Assembly (NCBI RefSeq): GCF_015831355.1
Contig: NZ_JADWYR010000003.1
Coordinates: 340,422-404,421 of the forward strand
DNA: 64,000 nucleotides
Source: Panacibacter microcysteis
GTDB lineage: Bacteria; Bacteroidota; Bacteroidia; Chitinophagales; Chitinophagaceae
Reading direction: 5' to 3'
The first letter of the stretch is position 1. Each line of letters starts with the position of its first letter. The position numbers were made by a program, and so were the translations under genes. Positions 190-47,998 of this stretch are shown one piece after another. The notes under the pieces were generated by a model. That model ran no database searches, was not told the DNA's origin, and saw only the letters and a list, made by a program, of their open reading frames with translations.

Positions 190-1368
190 TTACACATAAC
201 TCAGCCACCATTGGTCATGCGTGGCCTTGTACCTGTTAAACCATTTACAGGGAAAATACAGCGCAGCAATTACACAAAACCAGATCAGGTATACAACTGG
301 TAAGCCGTAACCAAAATGCAGCGGCCTGAAGTTGAAGGGAATATTGGGATCAACAATATCTTTTGAAGTACAACCAGACCAGTAAAACAAAACTACCAGC
401 AGCGTATGAATAAGAAAGAAATGTAGCACGTAATAAAAGAAAGGAACTCTTCCATACACCATCAATATTTTAGCAAGCCTGTTCTGCGCGGTTTCAGTAA
501 GTGCCAGAACGATAAGCGCCGGCCCAAGTGTCATACACACGTACATGAGCGATGGCGGGTATTTTGTTGTATTCAGGAAAGATAAGAAAGTCAGCATGCC
601 GTCTTTTTGTACCGTCCATGGTGCCGGATCTCCATACATGTTTACCAGTCGCAGTAATATAAAGACCAATGTAACTGCTATGCCGGAAACAAAGATCAGG
701 TACCTTCTTCTTTTGGCTTCGTACTCCTGTTTATATATGGTTCCAAAAGCATAGCCGAGCAGCATGACACCTGTCCATGGCAGCGCTGTATAAAACATCA
801 GGATCGCCCTGCTACCACCTAACGGGATGAAGTTAAAACCGGATGCGATACTGGCTTTGAGGATAGCAGCGCCGGCGCCATCAGCTAACTTGATATAATC
901 AAAAATGTTGTGACCAAGCACCAGCAGCAGGCCTGTAATGGTTATAACAGTGATGGAAGTTCTTGTCAGTACCCCCAGGATAATCATACTAAAACCGATT
1001 GCCCATATAACCTGCAAAAATATTTTGTTATAAAAAGGATCGTATGAAAGGGCAAATGTTATAACCACTACTTCTACCAGTATAAGCCACAGGCCTCGTT
1101 TTATAAGAAATGCACTGAGTTCTTTTGTTGTTTTTCGCCGGCCTGCAATAAAGGCCGATATGCCGGAAAGAAATACAAATGTTGGTGCACAGAAATGGGT
1201 GATCCACCGCGTAAAGAAAAGAGCGGGAGTGGTTGTGGCAAGATTGGTTGGGGTATCATCCATACCATGAATATGGAAGAAATCTCTTACATGATCCAAT
1301 GCCATGATCAGCATTACAATACCTCTGAGAATATCAATTGAATGGATGCGTTGTTTTGTTGCCTGCAT
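190..1368 (-). CDS. DUF1624-like polytopic membrane protein (heparan-alpha-glucosaminide N-acetyltransferase-like), paralog 1
   Basis: 392-aa ORF, multiple predicted TM helices, N-terminal motif IDILRG...MALDHVRDFFH; about 60% identical to the adjacent ORF. Confidence 0.7.
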   Translation of the reverse strand: MQATKQRIHSIDILRGIVMLIMALDHVRDFFHIHGMDDTPTNLATTTPALFFTRWITHFCAPTFVFLSGISAFIAGRRKTTKELSAFLIKRGLWLILVEVVVITFALSYDPFYNKIFLQVIWAIGFSMIILGVLTRTSITVITITGLLLVLGHNIFDYIKLADGAGAAILKASIASGFNFIPLGGSRAILMFYTALPWTGVMLLGYAFGTIYKQEYEAKRRRYLIFVSGIAVTLVFILLRLVNMYGDPAPWTVQKDGMLTFLSFLNTTKYPPSLMYVCMTLGPALIVLALTETAQNRLAKILMVYGRVPFFYYVLHFFLIHTLLVVLFYWSGCTSKDIVDPNIPFNFRPLHFGYGLPVVYLIWFCVIAALYFPCKWFNRYKATHDQWWLSYV

Positions 1369-1454
1369 GAAAGGGTGTTGAAAAAGAAAGATAAAAATTA
1401 TTATTATTGATCATGATAAAATATCTGCGAAGGTCGCTGTTGATTAACGAAAAA

Positions 1455-1510
1455 GGCGTTGAAGTGAGTGACACAACGAAGCTCAATAGCACTACCGCAG
1501 CCGGCTGAAA
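1455..1510 (-). repeat. Interspersed repeat R01 (degenerate, B-type core)
   Basis: GTTGTGTCACTCACTTC on the minus strand at 1464-1477 plus arm-like flank; between tandem DUF1624 paralogs. Confidence 0.5.
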
Positions 1511-1515
1511 AAAAA

Positions 1516-2709
1516 TTATATATAGCTCAGCCACCACTGCCGGTGTGTTGCACGGTAGCGGTTAAACCACTTACATGGCCAGTACAGTACTACAACCACG
1601 ATGATCCATACAAGATAAACCACCCACAGATCGAAGCCGTACTTAACAGGCCTGAACAGGAACGGTAAGTTGGGATCAATGATTTCATGTACACCATGCC
1701 CGGAAGCAAAAAATGCAATTACACAAAAAAGATGGATCAGGTAAAAGTGCAACACATAATATAAAAATGGTACGCGGCCATAAGTGATAAGTATGGCTGA
1801 CACCCTGTTTTGCACATGCCCGATCAATGATAATACGATGAGTGCCGGCCCGATCGTCATGCACAGGTATAGTAGTGATGCGGGGTACTTCGTTGTGTTG
1901 ACAAATGAGAAAATTGTATAAAGTACCGATGTTTGCGCAGCCCACGGTTTGGGATCTCCATACCCGTTGATAAAACGTAATACAACAAACAATAATGTTG
2001 TTGCAATGCCAAGAGTCATTAATGCCTGTTTTCTTTTTCCTGCTGTTACCTGCGGCAGAAAATATTTACCTGCCGCATAGCCCAGCAGCATTACGCCTGT
2101 CCATGGCAGTATAGCATACACATCGAGAAAGCCTCTTTGCGCTGTGTAAGGAAAAAAAGCAAATGCACCTTTAAAAAGGATGGTGTAAACCACATATGCA
2201 GGCCCCTCCTGCGGAGGCTGTATGTAATCAATTATGTTATGGCCCGCTGTAATTATAAGACCGGTTATAAAAATCACCGGCAGTGATGTTCTTACCAGTA
2301 AACCAAGAATGATCATGCTGCAGCCAATTGCCCATATGACCTGCAAAATAAAAACGTTGTAAAGCGGGTTAAACGTCCAGCCAAGCGTAATTACAATCAA
2401 TTCCACAAACACCAGCCACAGGCCTCTTTTAATAAGGAAGATACTGTGCTCTTTGGTTGTTTTTTTCTGCCCTGCAAGAAATGCTGATGTGCCGGACAGG
2501 AAGAGAAACACGGGTGCGCAGAAATGTGTTATCCACCTGGTGAAGAACAACAACGGTGTGGTGGTGGCAAGATTGGTGGGGTCATCGTCAAATGCATGAA
2601 TATGGAAAAAATCTCTTACATGATCCAGCGCCATAATGATCATTACAGCACCACGCAGTATATCTATTGAGACGATCCTTTTGGCTGGCTGGTTGCCTGG
2701 GTTACTCAT
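1516..2709 (-). CDS. DUF1624-like polytopic membrane protein, paralog 2 (tandem duplicate)
   Basis: 397-aa ORF colinear with 190..1368 and sharing its motifs. Confidence 0.7.
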   Translation of the reverse strand: MSNPGNQPAKRIVSIDILRGAVMIIMALDHVRDFFHIHAFDDDPTNLATTTPLLFFTRWITHFCAPVFLFLSGTSAFLAGQKKTTKEHSIFLIKRGLWLVFVELIVITLGWTFNPLYNVFILQVIWAIGCSMIILGLLVRTSLPVIFITGLIITAGHNIIDYIQPPQEGPAYVVYTILFKGAFAFFPYTAQRGFLDVYAILPWTGVMLLGYAAGKYFLPQVTAGKRKQALMTLGIATTLLFVVLRFINGYGDPKPWAAQTSVLYTIFSFVNTTKYPASLLYLCMTIGPALIVLSLIGHVQNRVSAILITYGRVPFLYYVLHFYLIHLFCVIAFFASGHGVHEIIDPNLPFLFRPVKYGFDLWVVYLVWIIVVVVLYWPCKWFNRYRATHRQWWLSYI

Positions 2710-2825: not shown

Positions 2826-3926
2826 TTGGCGCTTACTAACGAATCACTATTTCTTCACTTCCAATTGTTTGTCATGGCGAATGTATTTGAGTTTTTATAC
2901 AATGAGGTGGTTTCCTTTTTTAGTATTGGTGGCGTTATAGAGATGGTAAAAAAAGGCGATTACAGCAAGCTGCATACGTTAGACGGTGTAATATCTGTAG
3001 TAGTACCTTTTGTGCCATTCCTGTTACTGATTGAAATTATCCGCGCTGCATTTTATAAGAAGTTTAAAGTAGATGATTACCGCGTGCCGTTTTTCATATT
3101 CATTGCAAACAGGCTTATCTCAAGAGTTATTTCGGTTGCTGCGGTGGCTTTCTGTATCGGCCTTTTTGAAAAGTTCGCCATTTTTAAAACATCGTTTACC
3201 TGGTACTGGTTTATCTATGGATATGTTGTTTGGGAGCTGGCGCATTTCGTATATCATTTCCTGGCACATAAGGTTAGAATATTGTGGTGCTTACACTCCA
3301 CGCACCATGCGCCGGAGCAGATGAATTTATCAGTAACCTATGCGCATTTTTTCCTGGAGGCACCGTACGCAGATTTTATAAGAACATCTATTTGCATTCT
3401 ACTGGGTGTAAATCCGCCATTGTTATTTTTTATCATGTTCATAGATGGCACATGGGGCGGTTTTATACATGTAGGGGAGAATATTATAAAAAACGGCAGG
3501 CTTGGTTTTCTTAACCGTTTTATTTTAACGCCGTCACATCACCGGGTGCACCATGCAAAAAATGTGCAATACATGGATACCAATTTTTGCAACCTTCTCA
3601 ATATTTGGGACAGGGCTTTTGGCACATACCAGGATGAAAAAAGAGAGTTGCCCATTCAGTACGGCATTACAAGAAAGATTAACCCGCGCAATTTCTGGGA
3701 TGTTTACTTTGGTGAAATTTATTATTTGTTCATCGACATGAAAAATGCACCCGGGCTGAAGAATAAACTTCTTTACATGATTATGCCGCCGGGCTGGAGC
3801 CACACAGGCGATCACAAAACCTCAAAAGTGGCCAAACAAAAACTGGCAGAAGACGAGGTGAAAGGAGAACATGAGACCATTTACGTATCCACAGGCAATG
3901 CCGAAAAAGAAGCAGCAGTTGTTTAA
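2826..3926 (+). CDS. Fatty acid hydroxylase / sterol desaturase family membrane protein
   Basis: Histidine boxes HFLAHK, HSTHH and HHRVHH; membrane helices; start codon uncertain. Confidence 0.6.
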   Translation: MALTNESLFLHFQLFVMANVFEFLYNEVVSFFSIGGVIEMVKKGDYSKLHTLDGVISVVVPFVPFLLLIEIIRAAFYKKFKVDDYRVPFFIFIANRLISRVISVAAVAFCIGLFEKFAIFKTSFTWYWFIYGYVVWELAHFVYHFLAHKVRILWCLHSTHHAPEQMNLSVTYAHFFLEAPYADFIRTSICILLGVNPPLLFFIMFIDGTWGGFIHVGENIIKNGRLGFLNRFILTPSHHRVHHAKNVQYMDTNFCNLLNIWDRAFGTYQDEKRELPIQYGITRKINPRNFWDVYFGEIYYLFIDMKNAPGLKNKLLYMIMPPGWSHTGDHKTSKVAKQKLAEDEVKGEHETIYVSTGNAEKEAAVV

Positions 3927-3952
3927 TACTAATGTTACGGGCATAGCCCTTC

Positions 3953-4016
3953 GTGGCATCGCCTGTTGTGTCACTCACTTGTACAATAGTATTTTATGGC
4001 GGCTGCAGCGATCACA
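3953..4016 (+). repeat. Interspersed repeat R02 (B-type core)
   Basis: GGCATCGCCTG + TTGTGTCACTCACTTGTAC (3966-3984) + TTTTATGGCGGCTGCAGCG; 27 bp after stop of 2826..3926. Confidence 0.8.
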
Positions 4017-5006: not shown

Positions 5007-5084
5007 GGCTGCAGTCGCGTTAACATTCCGGCGTACAAGAGTGCGACGCAACGATGCTGATGAGCGGTCAAATGCCTGGCTCAT
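5007..5084 (-). repeat. Interspersed repeat R03 (A-type core, reverse)
   Basis: GTACAAGAGTGCGACGCAA at 5033-5051 with ATGAGCCAGGC-type arm on minus strand. Confidence 0.8.
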
Positions 5085-5183
5085 ATTTTTCTTTACAAAT
5101 TTTAGCAATTTAATAAAGCACATCATTAAGCTATACCGTTTTTTATCAGTCACTTTACTACACATTTAAACAAAAGACAGGTT

Positions 5184-5558
5184 ATGAAAAAAATATGCTC
5201 AGTAGTACTCGTTGTGGCTTTATCGTTTTTTGCTTTGAGCGCATCTGCGCAAGGCGGCGGCCAGAAAGGCCAGATGAAAGAGGCCATGAGACAGCGGTTG
5301 AAAGATTCGCTCAATCTTTCTGACGTAATGATAGATTCGGTAGTGGCGATAAGACAGGAAATGCAGCCTAAAATGAGGGCTGTTATGACCGATCAATCCC
5401 TGCAGGAAGGCGATAAGCGCACCAGGATGGAGGCTATGAAAAAGGAAATGTACGAGCGTTTAAAAAATGCCGGGCTAACAGCCGAACAGGTGAAGAAAAT
5501 GAAGGAAATGGATGAGCGAATGAGAGAACAAATGAAAGAGCGCAAGCCTGCAAACTAA
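5184..5558 (+). CDS. Small secreted Lys/Glu/Met-rich hypothetical protein
   Basis: Signal peptide MKKICSVVLVVALSFFALSASA, low-complexity mature part, followed by a terminator. Confidence 0.5.
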   Translation: MKKICSVVLVVALSFFALSASAQGGGQKGQMKEAMRQRLKDSLNLSDVMIDSVVAIRQEMQPKMRAVMTDQSLQEGDKRTRMEAMKKEMYERLKNAGLTAEQVKKMKEMDERMREQMKERKPAN

Positions 5559-8717: not shown

Positions 8718-9929
8718 ATGAACCTACATGAATACCAGGCAAAAGAACTGCTGAAAAAATACAATGTGCCCGTACAGGAAGGCATTGCGGTGGATAATGT
8801 AATGAGCGCCGAAGAAGCGTATCGCCAGATTAAAACACAAACAGGAAACAATTTTGCCGTGGTTAAAGCCCAGATTCATGCGGGTGGCCGTGGTAAAGGT
8901 AAAATAGAGGGCACTGAACAGCGCGGTGTAGCCGTGGCAAAGAGCCTTGAAGATATCAGCAGCATTGCCAAAAATATTTTAGGTCATACATTGGTAACCA
9001 TTCAAACAGGTGCTGCGGGTAAAAAGGTAAACAAGATACTGGTAGCACAGGATGTGTATTATCCCGGTCCAAACCCTGTAAAAGAATTTTACCTGTCTAT
9101 CCTTCTCGATCGTGCAAAAGGACAAAATGTAATTATGTACAGTACAGAAGGCGGAATGGATATTGAAGAAGTTGCGCACAGCACACCTGAGAAAATTTAT
9201 AAAGAATGGGTACACCCGGGTGGTGGCCTGCAGGGTTTCCAGGCAAGAAAGATTGCCTTCAACCTCGGTCTTAGCGGCGAGGCTTTTAAAAACTGTGTAA
9301 AGTTTGTAACCAACCTGTACAACGCGTATGTGGGGCTCGATTGCTCCATGCTTGAGATTAACCCGCTTTTCAAAACAAGTGATGAGAAGATAATTGCGGT
9401 TGACTGTAAAATGAATCTTGATGAGAATGCATTGATGCGTCACCCGGATCTTGCAGCAATGAGAGATATTACAGAAGAAGACCCTACAGAAGTAGAAGCA
9501 GGTCAGTTTAACCTCAACTTTGTAAAACTTGATGGTAATGTTGGCTGTATGGTAAACGGCGCAGGCCTGGCCATGGCTACGATGGATATGATCAAACTGA
9601 GTGGCGGAGAGCCTGCCAACTTTCTTGATGTAGGCGGTACCGCAAATGCGCAAACGGTAGAAGCCGGTTTCCGCATAATCATGAAAGACCCAAATGTAAA
9701 AGCCATCCTCATCAACATTTTTGGCGGTATTGTGCGTTGCGACAGGGTTGCGGCCGGTGTTATTGAAGCATATAACAAACTGGGCAATATCAACATTCCT
9801 ATCATTGTTCGTTTACAGGGCACCAATGCAGCAGAAGCAAAGAAGCTTATAGATGAAAGTGGTCTTAAAGTACAGAGTGCAATTCAGTTAAGCGAAGCTG
9901 CTGACCTCGTTAAAAATGCAGTTGCTTAG
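8718..9929 (+). CDS. sucC: Succinyl-CoA synthetase (ADP-forming) beta subunit
   Basis: MNLHEYQAKELLKKY... ATP-grasp N-terminus and CoA-ligase C-terminus, highly conserved. Confidence 0.9.
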   Translation: MNLHEYQAKELLKKYNVPVQEGIAVDNVMSAEEAYRQIKTQTGNNFAVVKAQIHAGGRGKGKIEGTEQRGVAVAKSLEDISSIAKNILGHTLVTIQTGAAGKKVNKILVAQDVYYPGPNPVKEFYLSILLDRAKGQNVIMYSTEGGMDIEEVAHSTPEKIYKEWVHPGGGLQGFQARKIAFNLGLSGEAFKNCVKFVTNLYNAYVGLDCSMLEINPLFKTSDEKIIAVDCKMNLDENALMRHPDLAAMRDITEEDPTEVEAGQFNLNFVKLDGNVGCMVNGAGLAMATMDMIKLSGGEPANFLDVGGTANAQTVEAGFRIIMKDPNVKAILINIFGGIVRCDRVAAGVIEAYNKLGNINIPIIVRLQGTNAAEAKKLIDESGLKVQSAIQLSEAADLVKNAVA

Positions 9930-9949
9930 TTAATCATATTTTTTTATCG

Positions 9950-9983
9950 AAACTCCTGCAATTTTTGCGGGAGTTTTTTTTAT
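9950..9983 (+). terminator. Rho-independent terminator of sucC
   Basis: ACTCCTGCAATTTTTGCGGGAGT hairpin followed by TTTTTTTTAT; the repeat element starts immediately after. Confidence 0.7.
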
Positions 9984-10068
9984 GTACCCGGCAGCAGTGC
10001 TGCTATTAAACTTTGGTTGCGTCGCACGCTTGTACTGCATATCATTATGCAGCAAGGTGCTACCGGCG
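9984..10068 (+). repeat. Interspersed repeat R04 (A-type core), full length
   Basis: GTACCCGGCAGCAG...TTGCGTCGCACGCTTGTAC (10017-10035)...TATGCAGCAAGG; starts at sucC terminator T-tract. Confidence 0.85.
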
Positions 10069-10177
10069 TAAGCTTTTTACAACCATTTTATTTGCGGTGT
10101 TGCAAAACTTAATAAAGAAGAGTGATCATAAGGAAGTGGGAGGAAAGCGCAACGAAAAGATGCCATAAAAACCATCA

Positions 10178-10235
10178 GTACAAGTGAGTGACACAACCGG
10201 CGATGCCATGAAAAACGATTGCCGGTTACAAAAAC
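10178..10235 (-). repeat. Interspersed repeat R05 (B-type core, reverse)
   Basis: GTACAAGTGAGTGACACAA at 10178-10196 + CCGGCGATGCCATGAAAAA; abuts stop codon of 10236..10895 (minus). Confidence 0.85.
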
Positions 10236-10895
10236 TTACTGCATCAGGTTTAAATGCAGCTCGCCAAAATTTTGTAATGATGAAATCCTGAGATCTGCAA
10301 TAACCCATTTCTCACTCTTTTGCTGGCTGAAATGTGGCACCACCACGCATTTCATGCGGGCTGCTTTTACGGCAATAAGACCGGGAAATGAATCTTCGAA
10401 ACAAATACATTCCAGCGGGTCTGCATTTAATGCAAGGGCACAATCCAGGTAAACCTGTGGGTGTGGCTTGCCATGGGGTAAGTTTTCTGCCGACGCCTTT
10501 GCCTGCACAAACTGTTGCAGACCGCACATTTCAATAGCCTTATCAATCATACCCAGCGGTGAAGAAGATGCAATGCCTATTTTAAAACCGCGCTCATGAA
10601 AGAAGCGGAAGATGTACGGCACGCCCGGCATAACTCTGCCTTTCTGTTCTATTTTTTCAATTACTTTTTCGAAGATCAGTTTTTCTGCACGGGCATGTTC
10701 TGCATCGCCCAGGTTGAAATGCTGAAACCACCATTGCACAAATTCTTTTGTACGCAAACCTGTAGTGGAATGATATTGTTCTTCAGAAAGGGAAACGCCG
10801 TACATCCTGAAAACTTCTGCTGCTGCTTCGTTCCAGAGTGGTTCGCTGTCGATCAAAAGTCCGTCCATATCGAAAATAGCCGTATTCAGTTGCAT
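10236..10895 (-). CDS. HAD-IA family hydrolase (beta-phosphoglucomutase-like)
   Basis: FDMDGLLIDSE motif I and HAD motifs II-IV. Confidence 0.7.
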   Translation of the reverse strand: MQLNTAIFDMDGLLIDSEPLWNEAAAEVFRMYGVSLSEEQYHSTTGLRTKEFVQWWFQHFNLGDAEHARAEKLIFEKVIEKIEQKGRVMPGVPYIFRFFHERGFKIGIASSSPLGMIDKAIEMCGLQQFVQAKASAENLPHGKPHPQVYLDCALALNADPLECICFEDSFPGLIAVKAARMKCVVVPHFSQQKSEKWVIADLRISSLQNFGELHLNLMQ

Positions 10896-12011: not shown

Positions 12012-14936
12012 ATGAGAAAGAGTCAGTGCATTCCAGTGATTTGCTTTGTCGCCCTGTTAATCAGTTTTAAAAGTTTTGCTCAAACAACAACAGTATCAGG
12101 AAAGATTTTAAACAGCACTACCAAGGAATCTGTTTCCGCGGTATCTGTCGTTATCAAAGGTTCAGCAATAGGTGCATATACCGATGACAAGGGAAACTTT
12201 AAATTTACTACTTCACAAAAGCCTCCGTTTACATTAGTGGTAAGCGCTATCAGCTTTGAAACAAAAGAAGTGGAATACAACGGGGGAGAAGTTACTGTAG
12301 AATTAAATGTTTCTTATGCACTTGGCCAGGATATCGTGGTAGCTGCAACCAAATTACCGCAAAGAATAATGGAAGCACCGGTTTCAATAGAGCGTGTTAA
12401 CGCATCAACTATAAGAAACACGCCGGGTGCCAGTTATTATGATGCATTGAATAACTTAAAAGGTGTTGACATTACAACATCCAGCTATACTTTTAAAACA
12501 GTTAGTACAAGAGGGTTTAATGGCAGCGGTAATTTACGTTTCAACCAATTGGTAGATGGTATGGACAACGCGGCACCAAGCCTTAATTTTTCTGTGGGTA
12601 ATGTGATCGGGCTTTCTGAACTGGATGTTGATAATATGGAATTGTTGTCCGGTGCATCTTCTGCACTCTATGGTTCGGGGGGCATGAACGGTACGTTGCT
12701 TGTATCCAGTAAAGATCCTTTTAAATACCAGGGTGTAAGTTTCCAAATCAAGCAGGGAGTAAACCATATTAATGATTCAAGACATAATGCTGCACCTTTT
12801 TATGACTGGAGTTTCAGATGGGGTAAAAAGGTGTCAGAAAAATTCGCGTTTAAAGTGGGCGCCGAATATATAAAGGCAAATGACTGGCAGGCAAATGACA
12901 GCACCAATCTTTTGCGTAACAACGTTTTAAGTAAAATAGATCCAAACGGTGGAACGAGAGCTTCAGATCCAAATTATGATGGTGTAAATATTTTCGGTGA
13001 TGAAGCAAGCGCTGGACTTAAAAGTTTTGCACAAGTTGCGGTCTTTCAAGGTGTTCCTACATTGCCACCAGGTACAACGGATTTGTTGAATCAGTTAATT
13101 AGTTCCATGCCTTATACGGATGTTAAAGCTACTCTCGCAGCGAATCCTGCTACTGCTCCTTTAAATGCTTTCCTTCCATTTTATGCAGGATATTTTGGTC
13201 CGTCATTAAATCCTGCTCAGTATAAGGACGTATATGGTGCTCAGGCTGTAAGTCGCACAGGCTATCAGGAAAAAGATATTGTAGATTACGATGCTAAAAA
13301 CCTCAAATTTAATGCTGGATTATATTTTAACATTACCCCATCTACTCAAATGTCGTTAACAGCCAATTGGGGGTCAGGGACAAGTGTTTATACTGGAGCA
13401 GACAGGTATTCATTAAAAAACTTCAGGATTGGACAGTATAAATTTGAGATAAAAAACCCAAACTGGCTGTTTAGAGCATACACAACACAGGAGAACTCTG
13501 GCGACTCGTATGCTTCAACGTTAACCGCACTATCTATAAATAATGCCTGGAAGGCAAACTCTGTCTGGTTTCAACAATATACTGCTGTTTATACTGATGC
13601 TGTATTATCCGGACTGCCTTCAGCACAAGCACATACTACAGCTAGGGGCTATGCGGATCAAGGTAGATTCGCACCCGGCTCCAAAGAATTCCAGGATGCG
13701 TTTAATAAAGCAACCACTACATCAATAGGAGAGGGTGGCTCTCAGTTTAAAGATAAATCAGGCGTTTACCATTTTGAAGGGCAGTATAATCTTACCCCAT
13801 ATATAAAGGTGATAGATGTTTTGGTTGGGGCAAGTTATCGGTGGTACGATCTTAAATCTAACGGCACTATTTTCGCAGACGATCCCGACAGCCTTGGGTC
13901 CATAAAAATTTCAGAGGTTGGTGCATTTATGCAGTTGCAGAAATCACTGCTGAAAGATGTTCTCAAGTTGTCTGCTTCCGGAAGATTTGATAAAAATCAA
14001 AACTTTGAAGGCCGGTTCACTCCCCGCATAACGGCGTCTGTAAAAGTTGCTAAAGACAATCACATCAGGCTTTCTTATCAACAAGCCTATCGGTTTCCTA
14101 CAAACCAGGATCAGTGGATCAATCTCAGAACACCAGGCAGTATCCTGATAGGTTGCTTACCAGGCTTTAATGACTATTATAAATTCTCTACTTCAAATCC
14201 CGTATTTTCCGCACAGAGCGTGGTTAATTACCGGGCAGCCTACGCCCAAACCGGTGTTGCCGATCCTACATTGCTGGAACGTGTGCAGTTAAAAACGGTT
14301 GTTCCGGAATCGATGCAGTCTTTTGAAATCGGTTATCGCGGTATCATCGCCAAAAAACTTTTGATAGACGCTTATTTTTATACCAGCAAGTATAAAAACT
14401 TTATAGGAAGAGAAGCAGTAGCAGGTGGCCAAAGTATGAGCGAGGCCGCTACTTACGGCGAACTGCTGAGTCCGTTTACTTCGACGAATTACTCTTTCGT
14501 TAAAAACAGTCCTACACCTGTAAAAGCAACCGGCTGGGGTTTTGGAGCTGAGTACTCTGCGGGTAAAGGTTATACCATTAAAGGCAATGTTTATGGAGAT
14601 CAGCTGCAGGACGTACCGGAAGATTTTGTAACGTTCTTCAACACACCTAAGATTCGTTACAACCTTGGTTTTGGTAATGCAAATGTTTACAAAGGCCTTG
14701 GCTTTAACGTACTTTATAAATGGCAGGACGATGTAAGTTGGGAAGGTACATTCGGTTCCGGTACCATACCATCTTTTGGTACGATGGACCTTTTACTGAG
14801 TTATAAACTCGGCAAAAGCAAAAACCTTGTCAAGCTGGGTGCTACAAACCTTTTCAACAATTATTACCGCAACGCATTTGGTAATCCTTACATAGGCGGA
14901 TTATACTATGTAAGTTTTGGATACAATGTATTTTGA
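12012..14936 (+). CDS. TonB-dependent outer-membrane receptor with N-terminal carboxypeptidase-regulatory-like domain
   Basis: Signal peptide, CarbopepD_reg-like region (VSGKILNSTT...DDKGNFKF), plug and barrel, terminal aromatic F. Confidence 0.8.
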   Translation: MRKSQCIPVICFVALLISFKSFAQTTTVSGKILNSTTKESVSAVSVVIKGSAIGAYTDDKGNFKFTTSQKPPFTLVVSAISFETKEVEYNGGEVTVELNVSYALGQDIVVAATKLPQRIMEAPVSIERVNASTIRNTPGASYYDALNNLKGVDITTSSYTFKTVSTRGFNGSGNLRFNQLVDGMDNAAPSLNFSVGNVIGLSELDVDNMELLSGASSALYGSGGMNGTLLVSSKDPFKYQGVSFQIKQGVNHINDSRHNAAPFYDWSFRWGKKVSEKFAFKVGAEYIKANDWQANDSTNLLRNNVLSKIDPNGGTRASDPNYDGVNIFGDEASAGLKSFAQVAVFQGVPTLPPGTTDLLNQLISSMPYTDVKATLAANPATAPLNAFLPFYAGYFGPSLNPAQYKDVYGAQAVSRTGYQEKDIVDYDAKNLKFNAGLYFNITPSTQMSLTANWGSGTSVYTGADRYSLKNFRIGQYKFEIKNPNWLFRAYTTQENSGDSYASTLTALSINNAWKANSVWFQQYTAVYTDAVLSGLPSAQAHTTARGYADQGRFAPGSKEFQDAFNKATTTSIGEGGSQFKDKSGVYHFEGQYNLTPYIKVIDVLVGASYRWYDLKSNGTIFADDPDSLGSIKISEVGAFMQLQKSLLKDVLKLSASGRFDKNQNFEGRFTPRITASVKVAKDNHIRLSYQQAYRFPTNQDQWINLRTPGSILIGCLPGFNDYYKFSTSNPVFSAQSVVNYRAAYAQTGVADPTLLERVQLKTVVPESMQSFEIGYRGIIAKKLLIDAYFYTSKYKNFIGREAVAGGQSMSEAATYGELLSPFTSTNYSFVKNSPTPVKATGWGFGAEYSAGKGYTIKGNVYGDQLQDVPEDFVTFFNTPKIRYNLGFGNANVYKGLGFNVLYKWQDDVSWEGTFGSGTIPSFGTMDLLLSYKLGKSKNLVKLGATNLFNNYYRNAFGNPYIGGLYYVSFGYNVF

Positions 14937-15691: not shown

Positions 15692-15781
15692 ACTTTTTAA
15701 CGTTCGCCCTGTTATTAGTGGCACTTGAAGAAATAAGGAAATTAACTGCAGGTAAAACAGTAATTCCTTAATTTAAATATT

Positions 15782-16195
15782 ATGAGCAGAAAAGTAGCAG
15801 TATACAGGAAGGAGCATTTCAATGCAGCGCACAGGTTGCACAACGCTGCGTGGAGCAATGAAATGAATGACAAAGTGTTTGGCAAATGCAACAACCCTAA
15901 CTATCACGGGCATAATTATGAACTGGAAGTAAAAGTTACCGGCGAACCAAACCCCGATACAGGCTATGTGATCGATATGAAAGAACTCAGCAACATCATC
16001 AACACACATGTGCTGGAAAGATTTGACCATAAAAACCTCAATCTCGATACTGCCGAATTCAAAACGCTGAACCCGACAGCAGAAAATATTGTAATGGTTA
16101 TTTACGACTTGTTGCGTGCCAGGATCGATACACGCTTCGATCTGCAGGTGCGGCTGTACGAAACACCACGCAACTTTGTTGAATTCCCGGTTTGA
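15782..16195 (+). CDS. 6-pyruvoyl/6-carboxy-tetrahydropterin synthase (PTPS/QueD family), paralog 2
   Basis: CNNPNYHGHNYEL motif; about 55% identical to paralog 1. Confidence 0.8.
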   Translation: MSRKVAVYRKEHFNAAHRLHNAAWSNEMNDKVFGKCNNPNYHGHNYELEVKVTGEPNPDTGYVIDMKELSNIINTHVLERFDHKNLNLDTAEFKTLNPTAENIVMVIYDLLRARIDTRFDLQVRLYETPRNFVEFPV

Positions 16196-16244
16196 CAGTG
16201 ATGAAACGCACTTGCATTGTAAACAGCTTTCCACGTTAAACGCT

Positions 16245-16312
16245 GATACACCCGGAAGAGCTGATGCATGATACGGTGTACAAGAGTGCGACGCAACAGG
16301 TGCTTAATACTT
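16245..16312 (-). repeat. Interspersed repeat R06 (A-type, reverse)
   Basis: GTACAAGAGTGCGACGCAA at 16278-16296; creates a spurious N-terminal extension of folE. Confidence 0.8.
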
Positions 16313-16348
16313 ATTCAAAAGTCTGGCTCACAAAAAATAAAAACTACA

Positions 16349-16948
16349 ATGGGTTACACAAAAAAAGAAACATACGATGAGCAGGTTACAGAAAACCTGG
16401 TGGTTAATTATAAAAATATACTGGAATTGATTGGCGAAGATGCTGACCGTGAAGGGCTGCTGAAAACGCCGGAGCGCATTGCAAAGGCCATGCAGTATTT
16501 AACGCAGGGCTATTCTCTAAATGCGGTTGATATCCTTAACTCTGCCAAATTTCATGAGCCTATCAGCGAGATGGTTATTGTAAAAGACATTGAAATATAC
16601 AGTATGTGCGAACACCATATGTTGCCATTCATTGGCAAGGCGCACGTAGCCTATATTCCAAACGGATGGATTACGGGTTTAAGTAAGATTGCACGTGTGG
16701 TAGATGTGTTTGCACGAAGGCTGCAGGTGCAGGAGCGTTTAACCGTGCAGGTAATGGACGCCATTCGCGAAAGCCTTAACCCGCTTGGCGTTGCGGTTGT
16801 TATAGAAGCCAAACATTTGTGTATGATGATGCGTGGCGTGCAAAAGCAAAACTCTGTTACTACCACTTCAGCATTTTATGGTGAGTTTGAAAAAGATACC
16901 ACGCGCAGCGAGTTTGTAAAGCTCATCAGTGCAGATCTTAGCAGGTAA
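16349..16948 (+). CDS. folE: GTP cyclohydrolase I
   Basis: Conserved FolE core ([11 protein letters not shown]...); the annotated N-terminal extension [11 protein letters not shown] is translated from repeat copy R06 and is rejected. Confidence 0.85.
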
Positions 16949-16968
16949 TGTTACAGGCATTGGCACAT

Positions 16969-17032
16969 GTGGCATCGCCTGTTGTGTCACTCACTTGTGC
17001 GTTCCGTTTATGTGGCAACTGTAGCGATCAGG
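16969..17032 (+). repeat. Interspersed repeat R07 (B-type)
   Basis: GGCATCGCCTG + TTGTGTCACTCACTTGTGC (16982-17000) + TTTATGTGGCAACTGTAGCG; 21 bp after folE stop. Confidence 0.8.
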
Positions 17033-21142: not shown

Positions 21143-21183
21143 GCGTTGGCTGTGCCCTGAAACTGAAGCCCAATAGGTGTTTT

Positions 21184-21214
21184 GCAGATGAACGGATTGC
21201 GACGCAACGATGCC
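21184..21214 (-). repeat. Interspersed repeat R08 (partial, C-type)
   Basis: GCAGATGAACGGATTGCGACGCAACGATGCC, matching the GGCATC..GTTGCGTCGCAATCC.TTCATCTGC variant seen at 27759. Confidence 0.6.
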
Positions 21215-21251
21215 CAACCAGGGTGATTAGCTGGTATCCATATTTTTTTTT

Positions 21252-21332
21252 GAACCAGGCACCATTGCTACTGTAAAGCGTTCCTTGCGTCGCACTCTTG
21301 TGCTGCATATCAATATTCAGCAAGGCACGATC
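21252..21332 (+). repeat. Interspersed repeat R09 (A-type), full length
   Basis: GAACCAGGCACCATTGCTACTGTAAAGC...TTGCGTCGCACTCTTGTGC (21285-21303)...TATCAATATTCAGCAAGG; preceded by a T10 tract. Confidence 0.85.
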
Positions 21333-25158: not shown

Positions 25159-25258
25159 GCGCCGGCCGCTGCTGACTATTGAACCGAAAGTACAAGTGTG
25201 CGACGCAACAGGCGATGCCATAAAATACAGTTGCCGGGTACCAAAAAATCAAACCAGT
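25159..25258 (-). repeat. Interspersed repeat R10 (A-type variant, reverse), full length
   Basis: GTACAAGTGTGCGACGCAA at 25190-25208, CAGGCGATGCCATAAAATAC arm; abuts stop of CBS gene (minus). Confidence 0.85.
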
Positions 25259-25259: not shown

Positions 25260-26636
25260 CTATTTGGCCAGGCTTTGTATAACGTCGTAGCGCGTTACAA
25301 TGTGATAATCTCCTTTGTCATCTTTGGCAAGCACGGCACCATTCTCTTTGGTTATAAGACTGCCCAGGCGCTCTACGGGTGTATCAAAAGCCACAACAGG
25401 GTAGGGCGGTTCTATAACGCTTTGTATTGACGCCGTTTTTATTTCGGGGTTATTAAAAACCTTTTTGAATAACCCATTTTCACTAACTGCGCCAACCGGC
25501 CCATTACCATTCATTACCGGCACCTGATCAATATCGTACTTTTTCATTAACTCCACTGCTTCTGCAACTGTGTGTGTTGGCTGCACAGTTACCAGTTTCT
25601 TCCCGGCCCTGCTGTTAACGATGTCTTTAAATGTTTTTACGTCAAGAAAACCTCGTTCCATCATCCATTGATCGTTGTAGATCTTTGCCACATAGCGGCT
25701 TCCATGATCGTGGAAAATGCAAACTACCACATCATCTTTTTTCAGGCGCTCTTTTAATTGCATTAAGCCCTGCAGGCAACTGCCGGCACTGTAGCCAATA
25801 AAAATACCCTCTTCTTTGGCAATGCGCCTTGCCATTACAGCGCCGTCTTTGTCTGTTACCTGCTCAAAATGATCTATTACAGACATGTCGTAATTCTGCG
25901 GTACAAAGTCCTCTCCAAAACCTTCACTGATGTACGGGTGCACCTGGCTCATGTCCACCTCGCCGGTCTGGTAATATTTGGTGAGCAAAGAGCCGTACAC
26001 ATCAATTGCCCAAACCTGTATGCCAGGATTTTTTTCTTTGAGGTACATTGCGGTGCCTGTAACTGTGCCACCGGTTCCGGCAGTACATAGCAGGTGTGTT
26101 ATTTTACCTTCTGTCTGTTGCCATATTTCAGGGCCTGTAGTTTCGTAATGTGCCACGCGGTTGGCCAGGTTGTCGTACTGGTTGCAGAGGTAAGCGTTGG
26201 GAATTTCTTTTTCAAGCCTTCTTGCTACAGAGTAATAGCTGCGCGGGTCATCGGGCTCTACGTTGGTAGGGCACACGATTACTTCTGCGCCTACAGCCTT
26301 CAGAATATCCATTTTTTCTTTACTCTGTTTATCTGTGGTGGTAAAAATGCATTTATAACCCTTTACACATGCCGCAAGTGCCAGTCCCATGCCTGTATTG
26401 CCGCTGGTGCATTCAATAATGGTTCCGCCTGGTTTAAGCTTGCCTTCCTGCTCAGCCACTTCTACCATTTTTAATGCCATACGATCTTTGATGGAATTGC
26501 CCGGGTTGAAGTAGTCTACCTTGGCAAGTATGGTACCTGGTATATCTTTTACAACTTTGTTTAACTTAATAAGCGGAGTGTTTCCAATGGTTTCTAAAAT
26601 ATTATTGAGCCACATACTAACAAGTGTTTGCCGCAA
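25260..26636 (-). CDS. Cystathionine beta-synthase-like PLP enzyme (CysK/CysM fold plus C-terminal CBS-domain pair)
   Basis: PLP-binding lysine region NPGNSIKDR; C-terminal tandem CBS domains. Confidence 0.75.
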   Translation of the reverse strand: MRQTLVSMWLNNILETIGNTPLIKLNKVVKDIPGTILAKVDYFNPGNSIKDRMALKMVEVAEQEGKLKPGGTIIECTSGNTGMGLALAACVKGYKCIFTTTDKQSKEKMDILKAVGAEVIVCPTNVEPDDPRSYYSVARRLEKEIPNAYLCNQYDNLANRVAHYETTGPEIWQQTEGKITHLLCTAGTGGTVTGTAMYLKEKNPGIQVWAIDVYGSLLTKYYQTGEVDMSQVHPYISEGFGEDFVPQNYDMSVIDHFEQVTDKDGAVMARRIAKEEGIFIGYSAGSCLQGLMQLKERLKKDDVVVCIFHDHGSRYVAKIYNDQWMMERGFLDVKTFKDIVNSRAGKKLVTVQPTHTVAEAVELMKKYDIDQVPVMNGNGPVGAVSENGLFKKVFNNPEIKTASIQSVIEPPYPVVAFDTPVERLGSLITKENGAVLAKDDKGDYHIVTRYDVIQSLAK

Positions 26637-26710
26637 AAGTAAGGGTTTTGTATTGTATGGAAGAACGAAGGAAAAAAGGCATTAATGAACCCGGCATTTG
26701 AATGATGATT

Positions 26711-26775
26711 GAGCTGTTGTTGCGTCGCACTCTTGTACTGCAGCAAAAAGCCCGGCACCCTGTAGCGCAACAACG
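26711..26775 (+). repeat. Interspersed repeat R11 (A-type)
   Basis: TTGCGTCGCACTCTTGTAC at 26720-26738 flanked by GTTGTTGCG / CGCAACAAC inverted repeat; upstream of CBS gene. Confidence 0.8.
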
Positions 26776-27711: not shown

Positions 27712-27748
27712 TAAAAAAGCCATCCCGGAGGATGGCTGTAATTTTTTT
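27712..27748. terminator. Bidirectional terminator hairpin
   Basis: AAAAAAGCCATCCCGGAGGATGGCTGTAATTTTTTT, A-tract and T-tract flanking a perfect stem. Confidence 0.65.
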
Positions 27749-27758
27749 GATGCCATTT

Positions 27759-27823
27759 GTACTGCAGATGAAAGGATTGCGACGCAACAGGTGATGCCAT
27801 GAAAAACTGCTGCCGGTATTACT
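27759..27823 (-). repeat. Interspersed repeat R12 (C-type, reverse)
   Basis: GTACTGCAGATGAAAGGATTGCGACGCAACAGGTGATGCCATGAAAAACTGCTGCCGGTA; 10 bp after stop of 27833..29284 (minus). Confidence 0.75.
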
Positions 27824-27832
27824 ACAAAACAA

Positions 27833-29284
27833 TTACATGTAACCAAGAATTTTAAGCATGCTCTGCGCTGTTTGTTCTTTTGCATACACCCAGTCTACCA
27901 GTTTGCCATTTTTGTCGTGGCCAACAATGATATGTTTGGGTGAAGGTATTAGACAGTGTTTAATGCCTCCGTAACCACTGATTTGGTCCTGGTACGCACC
28001 GGTATGAAAAAAACCAACGTACAACGGCTCTTTATCGTCAGACTGTGTATTGCTTATGCCGTAAGGCTGTGGTTTGCCATTGTTTTCAGAGATCTTAGGC
28101 AAAAACACTTCGTTGATGTGTTCTTCTGAATCATAATAATCGTGACTATCGCAGGTGATGCCCCCCAGTACTACGCGCTGATATTCGTTTTCCCATTTGT
28201 TGATCGGCAGCATCAGGAATTTTTCTCCAATGCCCCAGGTATCTGGTAGTGTGGTTATGAAAGAAGAATCTATCATGTACCATGTTTCCCGATCGTTTTG
28301 TACTTTCTGGGCAATAACACTATATATGTGTGCCATGCTTTCTCCAACTGTGTAGCTGCCAAACTCTGTATATATATTTGGCATAGGTACGTTGGCTTTT
28401 TTGCATGCTTTTTTAATGTTGCCAACAATTTCATTGATCATGAACTGGTAATCATACTCAAAACCCAGTGAGTGTTTTATAGGAAAACCGCCACCGATGT
28501 TTATAGAATCGAGTTCGGGACAAATCTTCTTTAGCTGGCAATAAAGGTTGATGATTTTATTAAGCTCACTCCAGTAATAGATATCATCTTTAATGCCTTT
28601 ATTGAGGAATATATGCAGCATTTTGAGCTGAAACTTATTCTCGTACCCTTCTATGTTGTCTACATAAAACTCGAGGATATCTTTGGCCCTTATACCCAAA
28701 CGTGAAGTATAGAACGGAAAAGTAGGCTCTTCCTCCGCAGCTATTCGTATACCCAGTTTAAACGGCTGTCTCACGCTTCTTTTATAAGCATTCAGTTCGT
28801 CTTTATTATCCAGTACCGGGATAACATTTTTAAAGCCGGAGTTGATAAGTTTGGCAATTCTTGAAGTATAGCTTTTCTGTTTAAAGCCGTTGCAGATAAT
28901 AAAGGTTTCTTTATTGATCTTTTTACGCTGGTAGAGCTTGTTAATGATCTCAATATCGTAGGCGTAAGATGTTTCGAGGTGTATCTCGTGTTTCAGTGCT
29001 TCTTCAACCACGAAAGAGAAATGCGAACTTTTGGTACAATAACAGTAAAAATATTTGCCATCGTATTTATGCTTTTTCATTGCATCGGCAAACATTCGTT
29101 TTGCTTTATTTATCTGCATACCTATTTTGGGTAAATAAGTAAGCTTCATCGGGGTGCCGTATTTCTCTATCAGTGCCTTAAGATCAAGGTCGTTGAACTC
29201 AAGATAGTTATTGTCTCCAATATCAAAGCCTTCCTGTGGAAAGTGAAAGGTTTGCTTCACCAGCGAGGTGTAAGAATTGTTCAT
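27833..29284 (-). CDS. Type III PLP-dependent decarboxylase (arginine/ornithine/lysine decarboxylase family, alanine-racemase fold)
   Basis: 483 aa; N-terminal TIM-barrel and C-terminal beta domain pattern; GGG motif. Confidence 0.6.
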   Translation of the reverse strand: MNNSYTSLVKQTFHFPQEGFDIGDNNYLEFNDLDLKALIEKYGTPMKLTYLPKIGMQINKAKRMFADAMKKHKYDGKYFYCYCTKSSHFSFVVEEALKHEIHLETSYAYDIEIINKLYQRKKINKETFIICNGFKQKSYTSRIAKLINSGFKNVIPVLDNKDELNAYKRSVRQPFKLGIRIAAEEEPTFPFYTSRLGIRAKDILEFYVDNIEGYENKFQLKMLHIFLNKGIKDDIYYWSELNKIINLYCQLKKICPELDSINIGGGFPIKHSLGFEYDYQFMINEIVGNIKKACKKANVPMPNIYTEFGSYTVGESMAHIYSVIAQKVQNDRETWYMIDSSFITTLPDTWGIGEKFLMLPINKWENEYQRVVLGGITCDSHDYYDSEEHINEVFLPKISENNGKPQPYGISNTQSDDKEPLYVGFFHTGAYQDQISGYGGIKHCLIPSPKHIIVGHDKNGKLVDWVYAKEQTAQSMLKILGYM

Positions 29285-30926: not shown

Positions 30927-31000
30927 GCATATGCTGCATGCAGTACTGCTGTACAAGAGTGCGACGCAACCAAAGCTTAATGCTTTTATTGCAGCCTGGC
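30927..31000 (-). repeat. Interspersed repeat R14 (A-type, reverse), full length
   Basis: GTACAAGAGTGCGACGCAA at 30951-30969; minus strand reads CCAGGCTGCAATAAAAGCATTAAGC...core...TGCATGCAGCATATGC. Confidence 0.85.
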
Positions 31001-31040
31001 TACAAAAAATTAACACTTAAAACAATAAAAAACAACAATT

Positions 31041-32973: not shown

Positions 32974-33002
32974 ACCACGGCAATTGTGCCGTGGTTTTTT
33001 TA
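32974..33002 (+). terminator. Rho-independent terminator of flotillin gene
   Basis: ACCACGGCAATTGTGCCGTGGT followed by TTTTTTTAT; repeat R15 starts directly after. Confidence 0.7.
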
Positions 33003-33060
33003 TGTACCGGGCTGCATTGCTACTATGAAGCGTCTGTTGCGTCGCACACTTCAACACTGG
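33003..33060 (+). repeat. Interspersed repeat R15 (A-type, 3' end truncated)
   Basis: TGTACCGGGCTGCATTGCTACTATGAAGC...TTGCGTCGCACACTTCAAC (33037-33055); starts at flotillin terminator T-tract. Confidence 0.8.
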
Positions 33061-33552
33061 AAAAAATAATGAGCAACGCGAAGAACAAAGCGAATTTTTT
33101 TAGTTGACAGAATCCTTATGTCGTAGTTGTACACTCACTCCTTATTGATGATAGTTGGCAGGGAAAAATGGTACAGAAAATATTGTAACAGCGCTGATAT
33201 ATTTATTTTTTTACTATCAATAACATGGTGTGGTAACGTATAATGTTTTACATACGTATACACTACATATTCATGTGGAAACGATGGAAACTTTTACGGA
33301 ATACTGCATGGTCCGTTATATCTATAAATTGCTGAAACACACACTGCACCTGAATTATAAGAAAAAGAAAGGATTTGTACTGCTCACCAAAAAGTGTAAG
33401 TGTAAACCAGTATTGTGACAAATATCATTTTGAATTGATGGTTATTATTGTATTTTTACACCCATAAAGTGTATGATCCTATACCTATCTGATAATCCGT
33501 ATTTTTTAATCAATTAAAACTCAAAGTTTTCAACTGGCCTAAATAAAAACTT

Positions 33553-37659: not shown

Positions 37660-37690
37660 AGGGAGATCGGAAACGGTCTCCTTTTTTTAT
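37660..37690 (+). terminator. Rho-independent terminator of yajC
   Basis: GGGAGATCGGAAACGGTCTCC followed by TTTTTTTATTTGG; repeat R17 starts directly after. Confidence 0.7.
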
Positions 37691-37781
37691 TTGGTAGTCT
37701 GCAGTAGTAATTTATGGCATCGCCTGTTGTGTCACTCACTTGTACTGCAGGTTTTCATGGCGGCTGCAGCGTTGCGGGTAG
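37691..37781 (+). repeat. Interspersed repeat R17 (B-type), full length
   Basis: TTGGTAGTCTGCAGTAG...TTTATGGCATCGCCTG + TTGTGTCACTCACTTGTAC (37727-37745) + TGCAGGTTTTCATGGCGGCTGCAGCG; starts at yajC terminator T-tract. Confidence 0.85.
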
Positions 37782-39517: not shown

Positions 39518-39600
39518 AATACCCGCATAGCCCAATATGGTTATACTGTACAAGAGTGCGACGCAACAGCTGTTTAATTGCAGTACTGCAGCTGGCACCA
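39518..39600 (-). repeat. Interspersed repeat R18 (A-type, reverse)
   Basis: GTACAAGAGTGCGACGCAA at 39548-39566; lies 36 bp past uvrA stop (minus). Confidence 0.8.
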
Positions 39601-39635
39601 AAATAAATTGTATGAACAGCTAACGGGTAATGTTG

Positions 39636-44086: not shown

Positions 44087-44092
44087 TTTTTT

Positions 44093-44172
44093 GGGCCAGG
44101 GCAGCATTGCTACTATCAGGCTTTTCTTGCGTCGCACTCTTGTACACCAAAACACTATGCAGCATAGTGCAC
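44093..44172 (+). repeat. Interspersed repeat R19 (A-type), full length
   Basis: GGGCCAGGGCAGCATTGCTACTATCAGGC...TTGCGTCGCACTCTTGTAC (44127-44145)...CTATGCAGCATAGTGC; 6 bp after XRE-cupin stop and its T-tract. Confidence 0.85.
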
Positions 44173-47936: not shown

Positions 47937-47998
47937 TTACCTGCAGTCGTTAAAAGCAAATACCAAAAAACCTGATTCATTCGAAAACGAATAATACA

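Follow-up and report, generated by a model that had tools for sequence, protein, structure and literature searches.

What is the repeat that lies between sucC and its neighbour in Panacibacter microcysteis, and why do its copies stand where they do? In a 64,000-nt stretch of this genome (assembly GCF_015831355.1, contig NZ_JADWYR010000003.1, positions 340,422 to 404,421; the window in what follows), positions 9950-10235 are the convergent intergenic DNA that separates sucC (8718..9929, +) from a HAD hydrolase gene (10236..10895, -), and contain the sucC terminator and two repeat copies that face each other. The repeat represents an apparently undescribed intergenic family of Chitinophagaceae with about 25 copies in the window. 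We put at about even the chances that it is an old, non-autonomous interspersed repeat of this bacterial family, similar to the REPINs (hairpin-forming doublets of repetitive extragenic palindromes, REPs) and bacterial interspersed mosaic elements (BIMEs), with a dimer as the likely unit.

Window genes were called with a codon-usage score and their names checked with Pfam; repeat copies were found by a core search and then with an nhmmer profile built from the core matches. The core search returned 26 sites (24 clean and two decayed) and the profile 25 copies, roughly one per 2.5 kb and none of them intragenic, which bears out the dense family described in an earlier reading of the letters alone (the original prediction). 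The junctions quoted there are each present in the sequence, and its gene names hold too: SucC, a protein that Panacibacter sp. DH6 has in identical form, and by Pfam a Band_7/SPFH "flotillin," YajC, the HAD hydrolase and EF-G. For comparison we used 216 further copies in 120 Chitinophagaceae loci (L002-L121), a locus of P. ginsenosidivorans (L125), a metagenome scaffold from a strain 98% identical to the window (L001), and 86 profile matches in 49 stretches of IMG/VR viral contigs that contain the core pattern. Intragenic copies number one of 216 in the genomic loci and four of 86 in the viral contigs, or five of 339 over the window, L002-L121, L125 and the viral contigs. A scan with the core pattern TTGYGTCRCWCWCTTGTAC, taking one genome per species, matched at least 120 stretches, all from Chitinophagaceae or Chitinophagales or from unclassified metagenome-assembled genomes of Bacteroidota; the genera named among the matches listed are Segetibacter, Ferruginibacter, Flavisolibacter, Lacibacter, Foetidibacter, Limnovirga, Niastella and Chitinophaga. 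A plasmid search for the repeat gave no match, and in the searchable literature the core strings turn up only in two plant papers on unrelated matters.

The unit is about 82 nt long. Read 5′ to 3′, it has a T-run, then (A)TG and a CCrGGC box, a variable stretch of about 28 nt, a core of 19 nt, and a final segment of about 22 nt that closes with TATkCAGC (consensus: tTTTTtTG tac CcgGC ...28 nt... TTGCGTCGCACtCTTGTAC ...TATTCAGC). Conservation spans about -40 to +41 around the core. The T-run boundary that had been proposed for the 5′ end is real, the frequency of T being 57-81% at -39 to -33 from the core in 228 copies. The core comes in two dialects, A (TTGCGTCGCACTCTTGTAC, or TTGCGTCGCAC(T/A)CTTGTAC), which contains CGTC and accounts for about two thirds of the copies, and B (TTGTGTCACTCACTTGTAC), which contains TGTC and accounts for about one third; both coexist in one genome at an A:B ratio of about 2:1. 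Within the core lies a palindrome, the 9-nt TGCGTCGCA in dialect A or GTGTCAC in dialect B, and core positions 3 and 7 covary symmetrically (C/G 152, T/A 74, mixed 2). The core is the same across genera while the flanks drift. Beyond the core haplotype, whose positions are linked, and signatures of local subfamilies, mutual information picks up only one link, not complementary, with a position 36 nt upstream.

Coding and promoter readings of the unit were tried and rejected. That the conserved ATG opens a gene for a small peptide is ruled out by in-frame stops in most copies (e.g., CTA CTA TGA in those at 33037 and 61247). Among promoter motifs, those of the Bacteroidetes -33/-7, extracytoplasmic function (ECF) and sigma-54 types misfit in spacing or motif, each agreeing with some subfamilies only, and a scan for sigma-70-type promoters found no excess.

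In the sucC region the intrinsic terminator (9949..9981, +) is formed by the hairpin GAAACTCCTGCAATTTTTGCGGGAGTTTT (9949-9977) and a T-run, which doubles as the 5′ edge of the first copy (9975..10056, +; core A, TTGCGTCGCACGCTTGTAC at 10017). The second copy (10157..10238, -; core B) is its tail-to-tail partner, and its T-run follows immediately on the stop codon with which the HAD hydrolase gene ends (TAA, then GTTTTTGTAACCGGC). The facing pair of the original prediction is thereby confirmed at slightly different coordinates.

Do copies take their direction from the gene upstream, as had been proposed on the strength of about 16 of 25 copies? The count can be reproduced: 16 of 24 window copies have their 5′ side facing a gene 3′ end. 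Six of these 16, however, belong to convergent regions, in which a copy follows a 3′ end whichever way it points. The split of co-oriented versus anti-oriented copies in tandem regions is 10 versus 6 in the window (binomial p ~0.45), 60 versus 62 in the 120 other genomic loci and 32 versus 38 in the viral contigs; orientation by the upstream gene does not exceed chance in the window and is absent from the other two sets. The polarity that does exist is of another kind. When each end is measured against its own flanking gene, the T-rich 5′ end is the nearer of the two in 21 of 24 window copies (p = 0.0003) and in 127 of 184 copies elsewhere (p = 3e-7), which is to say that the T-rich end points at the nearest gene and not along the direction of the upstream one.

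The choice of intergenic region is also uneven. Copies per kb of intergenic DNA amount to 4.0 in convergent, 2.9 in tandem and 0.8 in divergent regions of the window, and to 2.0, 1.6 and 0.9, respectively, in the other loci, so that the enrichment claimed for regions with a gene 3′ end is genuine and moderate. The scarcity of copies in divergent regions agrees with selection against the disruption of promoters.

The orientation claim was part of a wider model, in which a mobile element inserts 3′ of T-tracts, above all the U-tracts of terminators, the T-run being the target and the orientation that of the upstream gene. The even split of orientations in tandem regions already speaks against this model, and the terminators themselves do so as well. 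A hairpin stands directly before the T-run in three window copies, those after sucC (9975), the Band_7 gene (32995) and yajC (37685); only at these does the boundary coincide with a terminator T-tract. Two further copies, 49633 (susD) and 61439 (fusA), lie just downstream of a terminator with a T-run of its own, and an upstream hairpin of any description accompanies only 3-5 of the 25 window copies. Conversely, a T-tract common to terminator and copy is found at only three of the approximately 20 distinct intergenic terminators of the window; most have no copy, among them strong ones with T6-T8 at 5564, 14989, 18202, 29366 and 35602. Runs of at least five T are found in 51% of copies facing a gene end, 56% of those facing a gene start and 7% of control windows; being equally frequent towards starts and ends, the T-run is not in general the T-tract of a terminator.

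Stop codons, on the other hand, are favored, as the original prediction had also suggested, and in this respect placement is not random. In the window 9 of 16 5′ ends but 1 of 12 3′ ends lie within 12 nt of a stop; the corresponding figures for the other loci are 37 of 93 and 16 of 95 (chi-square ~12, p ~5e-4). Stop codons most often end at -39 to -43 from the core, as they do in 24 of 108 tail-facing copies, from which it follows that the T-run begins right after the stop. Nine window copies abut stop codons without any hairpin, and among element-free gene ends only 7% have a run of at least five T within 12 nt past the stop. With most terminators unoccupied and so many copies at hairpin-less stops, insertion targeted to terminators is not upheld.

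A T-rich landing site without the terminator is possible, and several observations favor it. In about 70-80% of copies the spacing between T-run and core is fixed. After sucC, five lineages (L020, L177, L178, L180 and L182) have the order hairpin, T6-8, (A)TG, element, with hairpins and variable parts of the element that differ among them, and L179 has the hairpin and a T-rich tail with no element. At three boundaries a T- or A-run either has another recognizable role or recurs in a relative that lacks the element. These are the U-tract belonging to the sucC terminator, the TTT-TAA (a conserved C-terminal Phe and the stop) with which a TonB receptor gene closes, and a CAAAAAA run upstream of susD. 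The latter two are also present in the element-free L176, exactly where the copies of L125 begin. Other observations count against it. The spacer between the HAD and DUF5690 genes of L176 is 6 nt long and has no T-run; orthologous copies gain or lose the T-run in place; and terminators are under-used and stop codons over-used. In dimers the T-run on one side answers to an A-run on the other, which is the symmetry of an inverted repeat and not a duplicated target. We consider insertion at T-tracts, in the form originally proposed, unlikely.

The remaining suggestion of the original prediction was that the element supplies a terminator or some other 3′ function, and an element acting at the RNA level would be a structured or protein-bound module of the 3′-untranslated region, a terminator, or a small RNA of the upstream gene. 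Many copies lie between stop codon and terminator and must be transcribed (e.g., 16941-17021, ahead of the terminator at 17075), and their position at stop codons recalls REPs downstream of coding regions. No structure could be found. RNAalifold predicted zero pairs on 24 aligned copies; the z-score of the minimum free energy against dinucleotide shuffles averaged 0.19 for -32 to +45 and about 0 for sub-segments, six single copies ranging from -2.6 to +0.7. Duplex tests on all pairs of segments, real versus permuted, showed pairing within a copy to be no better than between copies, and mutual information revealed no covarying arms. At the gathering threshold Rfam recognized only tRNA in the whole window, and at E<=10 nothing relevant in 9900-10300. 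These results largely refute a structured RNA or terminator and remove, for the single unit, the terminator, structured-RNA, IS200/IS605-hairpin and classical REP readings. The resemblance to an intrinsic terminator is confined to the three window copies that share a T-run with a real one; in the unit itself the T-run lies at the 5′ side and no hairpin accompanies it. Since both orientations are, in addition, equally common with respect to transcription, an RNA-level element seems very improbable.

The same data dispose of the analogies that had been drawn with IS200/IS605-type MITEs (transposable elements of the miniature inverted-repeat kind) and with group II introns. The repeat does resemble palindrome-associated elements derived from IS200/IS605 in being polar, in the short sequence of fixed composition that flanks it on the 5′ side and in lacking a target duplication. 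Those elements, however, need subterminal hairpins at both ends, which the Chitinophagaceae unit does not have. They also show a strand bias with replication, whereas the copies described here alternate between strands locally.

If single units do not fold, pairs of them do. Close pairs are tail to tail in 25 cases, head to head in one and direct in none, and by dialect the 25 comprise 16 AB, 9 AA and no BB pairs; 11 of the 12 tightest (cores <=91 nt apart) are A/B. Tight dimers measure about 145-200 nt and fold as an imperfect hairpin through pairing of core A with core B (z -0.6 to -3.4). In the window 16 of 24 classified copies are single arms.

Neighbors separated by genes alternate as well. 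Opposite orientations outnumber identical ones by 15 to 5 in the window, 27 to 12 in the viral contigs and 62 to 16 in the other loci (p = 1.5e-7), where the neighbor orientations are -+ 39, +- 23, ++ 8 and -- 8. This alternation means that gene units tend to be bracketed on both sides, with the T-rich ends inward, or on neither.

In some dimers the loop between tail-to-tail partners carries a second short, GTCGAC-rich repeat, cttcggtcgactgttgaccgtcaactgtcgacgg (L068:~478-660 and ~5957-6140, and dimers of L143 and L171).

Dimers of this kind invite comparison with MITEs that have long terminal inverted repeats, such as Correia/NEMIS, ERIC and RUP. A MITE is a non-coding stretch of 50-500 bp between inverted repeats, and the tight dimers, likewise non-coding and intergenic, resemble one whose inverted ends are imperfect and form a long hairpin. 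The arms of the Chitinophagaceae dimers differ from such ends in being usually of different dialects and about 60-70% alike; most copies are single arms, and no parent insertion sequence is known for them. Target-site duplications were sought by asking whether the 5′ flank and the sequence downstream have more k-mers in common than permuted pairs do; none was seen, though old copies could have lost them. SINE-like (short interspersed nuclear element) retroposition, with the A-run as a 3′ tail on the other strand, is compatible with the anatomy, but duplications are lacking and no mechanism for it is known in bacteria; we find it scarcely credible.

How old is the family? Outside the core, window copies are on average 0.60 identical to one another, with a maximum of 0.81, which excludes a recent burst. 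All 16 of 16 comparable copies are common to the window and the 98% DNA-identical scaffold, from which the core differs by 0.66%, the rest of the element by 0.80% and other intergenic DNA by 0.88%. Synteny with P. ginsenosidivorans, whose proteins are about 80% identical, extends over 16 kb, and this species has a counterpart for seven of seven window copies in the 42-58 kb stretch, one with a decayed core and one with core A where the window has B. It has three extra copies at places where the window has apparent 5′-edge remnants, and decayed cores and edge-only remnants at sites with an intact copy in the relative form a decay series. The window sites that lack the extra copies of L125 resemble deletion remnants and not clean empty sites; of other candidates for an empty-site comparison, L117 is too diverged to align, and L176 and L179 are element-free but distant. 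Panacibacter genomes have 12-13 copies per 21 kb, and L175, L176 and L179 none in 21 kb each. L176 has the same operon, susC-susD-...-DUF5690, with spacers of 6-48 nt. Element-free relatives with the same operon make the family patchy and dispensable; it is also old, and has expanded the intergenic regions of the Panacibacter lineage.

Site-specific inversion between inverted copies was considered and rejected, the window, the 98% strain and P. ginsenosidivorans being collinear across five brackets.

Copies at the same position may differ in dialect. The window copy at 56990-57072 is B and its counterpart L125:14550-14630 is A; two related phage contigs (L143:~12018 and L171:~6421) differ at one copy, TGTCGCACTC against TGTCACTCAC. 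Such differences suggest, as far as the sequences go, conversion between the dialects or a two-base shift.

Two further observations concern L177, whose SucC is 99% identical. The spacer of about 100 nt between the two copies downstream of sucC in the window is replaced in L177 (10710-11715) by a compound tandem repeat of about 1 kb with periods of 67 and 156 nt. The 67-nt unit is hairpin-like (ATTGCC.CAGCTTTGC ... GTAAAGCTTCGCAAT); the array is not a gene, had no match in Pfam or Rfam and has no copy in the window. In L177:3830-4878 an additional DUF4846 gene (270 aa, -) follows directly on a repeat copy, between the genes for a fatty-acid hydroxylase and a periplasmic-binding protein, where the window (3927-4207) has a 281-nt spacer.

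The repeat is also found in viral genomes. Contig IMGVR_UViG_3300020047_016721 (L130) encodes an integrase, large terminase, portal, head protease/major head protein and tail sheath, and is on this gene content a bona fide phage or prophage. Its four copies (2466-2548, 4398-4479, 7013-7092 and 13180-13261) are situated within the packaging, head and tail module, where each fills the whole gap between co-directional genes: one between the integrase and terminase genes, others directly past the terminase and portal stops. In the viral contigs copies have genes directly against both ends and do not follow the polarity rule (29 of 72). This placement argues against a terminator role and for mobility or a generic role at the DNA level. 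The claim that the element supplies a terminator fails on several counts: the T-run precedes the unit, the hairpin is lacking, and copies occur both ways between co-transcribed phage late genes. PMC11602168 mentions MITEs common to hosts and phages, and the Chitinophagaceae repeat likewise occurs in both.

The closest resemblance is to REPs. In these, inverted dimers prevail, direct dimers are rare and heterodimers are preferred; their CGTC tags are sometimes TGTC, and they are found between unidirectional and convergent ORFs (open reading frames), downstream of coding regions (PMC3733652). Like REP, BIME and REPIN sequences (PMC3733652, PMC3116915), the Chitinophagaceae repeat is high-copy and intergenic, stands right after coding regions between unidirectional or convergent genes, and forms inverted pairs with near-absent direct dimers and a preference for heterodimers. 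Its singletons look like remnants of dimers, and its families are old and vertically persistent. The CGTC (A) or TGTC (B) of the core is reminiscent of the REP tag, a weak likeness, as it amounts to a 4-nt match in a non-palindromic unit. The differences are substantial. A REP unit is an imperfect palindrome of 20-40 bp with a 5-13 bp stem and a short loop, while the unit described here has about 82 nt, no stem-loop, and a T-tract edge whose position, about 33-39 nt from the core, is fixed; its core is common to genera, whereas REPs are species-specific; REPs flank a RAYT (Y1 transposase) gene, with which this repeat is not known to be associated; and copies are also present in a phage genome. 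By these comparisons we file it as an interspersed intergenic repeat outside the REP, MITE and IS200/IS605-derived families.

The REPIN/BIME-like reading may be put as follows. The replicative or ancestral form would be a tail-to-tail dimer, usually with an A and a B core that pair into an imperfect hairpin, and many of the single copies would be what is left of dimers. A putative trans-acting enzyme that reads the core would have carried the repeat to intergenic sites, perhaps beside T-rich tracts. Selection would have removed the copies parting a promoter from its gene, and in the survivors the T-rich edge would adjoin a stop codon or terminator, or else a 5′ region at its far side. The patchy distribution, typical of selfish repeats, speaks for this reading, as do the near-exclusively intergenic position, the copies in a phage, the decay series, the REP-like rules of dimer formation and the scarcity in divergent regions. 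Several findings weigh on the other side. There are no near-identical copies, and together with the 16 of 16 copies shared by the 98% strain this leaves no sign of recent activity. Target-site duplications were not detected; no transposase was identified, none having been looked for genome-wide. The cross-genus identity of the core and the seven of seven counterparts in P. ginsenosidivorans could equally mean a host function. The alternation (62 versus 16) is far above that of independent placement and has no explanation in a selfish-element model, and the excess of 5′ over 3′ ends at stops (40% versus 17%) goes beyond what tolerance alone would give.

Several of these points speak for an alternative in which the repeat is a boundary element of the host. 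Here the 19-nt core would be a putative binding site for a conserved protein of Chitinophagaceae, e.g., a nucleoid or topology factor; copies would bracket transcription units with their T-rich ends inward, and phages would use the same sites. An invariant core amid drifting flanks, counterparts kept in position between species at about 80% protein identity and, after sucC, between genera, and the symmetric joint change of core positions 3 and 7 all agree with such a site. So do the bracketing of gene units on both sides or neither and the gene-proximal T-rich end (21 of 24 and 127 of 184), while an orientation independent of transcription fits a role at the DNA level. Set against this, relatives with the same operon are entirely element-free, which makes the element dispensable; cores decay in place; the polarity rule is gone in phage contigs; and copies occupy under half of the tandem and a quarter of the divergent regions in the window. 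The A/B differences, moreover, behave as a linked subfamily haplotype reaching a position 36 nt away. We regard a host-functional boundary element as possible and, on balance, unlikely. In a family-wide form, the boundary signal would be a putative protein-bound site with two compatible dialects, kept over genus-level divergence and adopted by phages. It would explain the alternation, the invariant core and the abutment to stop codons, and we judge it distinctly improbable.

A short conserved core with two dialects, dense, in both orientations, with inverted pairs downstream of genes and conservation at family level, could also be a DNA uptake signal favoring self DNA, similar to the DNA uptake sequences (DUS) and uptake signal sequences (USS). 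These, however, are 9-12 nt long, occur also inside genes and have one dialect per genome. The repeat is an 82-nt, near-strictly intergenic module with both dialects side by side, and it is absent from close relatives. Chitinophagaceae are not known to be competent, and we hold an uptake signal to be extremely unlikely.

Returning to the preferred REPIN/BIME-like repeat, the REP literature considers the hairpin to be what the mobilizing enzyme recognizes. If our description holds, behavior of the REP/BIME kind without a palindrome would imply that spread or reading may use a different mechanism, and Chitinophagaceae, a large family of soil and freshwater bacteria, carries this class of repeat. 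The polarity, the alternation and the copies in phage late operons are testable handles on whether it is a parasite or a boundary signal, and the core would serve as a sharp marker of the taxon. As the unit takes up entire intergenic regions, it will also affect the prediction of terminators, promoters and small RNAs in these genomes.

Among the other window copies, those at stop codons are 1436..1517 (-, core B; 5′ end at the stop of 1516..2709, -), 3924..4005 (+, core B; TAATG instead of a T-run, at the stop of 2874..3926), 16941..17021 (+, core B; at the stop of the GTP cyclohydrolase I gene, whose terminator, 17075-17097, lies beyond the copy), 27748..27829 (-, 3′ half of the core decayed; at the stop of 27833..29284, -), 44085..44166 (+, core A; at the stop of 43514..44086), 52213..52294 (+, core A; at the stop of the HAD gene 51529..52215) and 55562..55643 (-, core A; at the stop of 55646..56923, -). 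The 5′ end of 25168..25250 (-, core A) is 9 nt off the stop of 25260..26615 (-). T-runs are held in common with a terminator in 32995..33077 (+, core A; Band_7 gene) and 37685..37766 (+, core B; yajC) and are separate from it in 49633..49713 (+, core B; after the susD terminator) and 61358..61439 (-, core B; downstream of the fusA terminators). The copy at 39527..39608 (-, core A) is downstream of uvrA (-).

Six copies, all with core A, are associated with the upstream side of a gene. The 5′ end is directed towards the start of 5184..5558 in 5012..5091 (-), of the GTP cyclohydrolase I gene in 16257..16338 (-) and of 25260..26615 (-) in 26678..26759 (+), which has a positional counterpart in L039; it precedes the start of the Band_7 gene by 29 nt in 30930..31011 (-) and lies 5 nt from the start codon of 49878..50951 in 49792..49872 (-), while 63843..63924 (+) is on the upstream side of fusA (-).

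The rest are 21243..21324 (+, core A), back-to-back with a degenerate copy, TTGCGTCGCAATCC, at approximately 21167..21249 (-) that was found by the core search only and missed by nhmmer; 44367..44448 (-, core B), the partner of 44085, with a positional counterpart in P. ginsenosidivorans; 56990..57072 (+) and 61205..61286 (+, core A). Two sites appear to be remnants from their letters: 52321..52344 (-), a 5′ edge (TTTTGAGTACCGGTAAGAATGATG on the - strand) whose partner copy is intact in L125, and the short spacer between the TonB-receptor and susD genes (47937..47998), where nothing but the outer edges seems to survive of a dimer found intact at L125:5411-5555.

Three features of the window are independent of the repeat. 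The segments 929-1228 and 2258-2557 form a 300-nt direct repeat of 67% identity, which reflects the adjacent acyltransferase paralogues 190..1368 and 1516..2709 (both Acyl_transf_3/HGSNAT_cat). Upstream of the GTP cyclohydrolase I gene, 15281-16195 encodes two tandem paralogues of 6-pyruvoyl-tetrahydropterin synthase (PTPS); for the second of these the longest-ORF call (15773..16234, -) is on the wrong strand. Finally, the TonB-dependent receptor gene 12012..14936 contains a segment, 13033-13248, that does not align with its counterpart in the 98% strain (L001:14317-14499), the product being 974 aa in the window and 963 aa in that strain, a difference of 11 residues.

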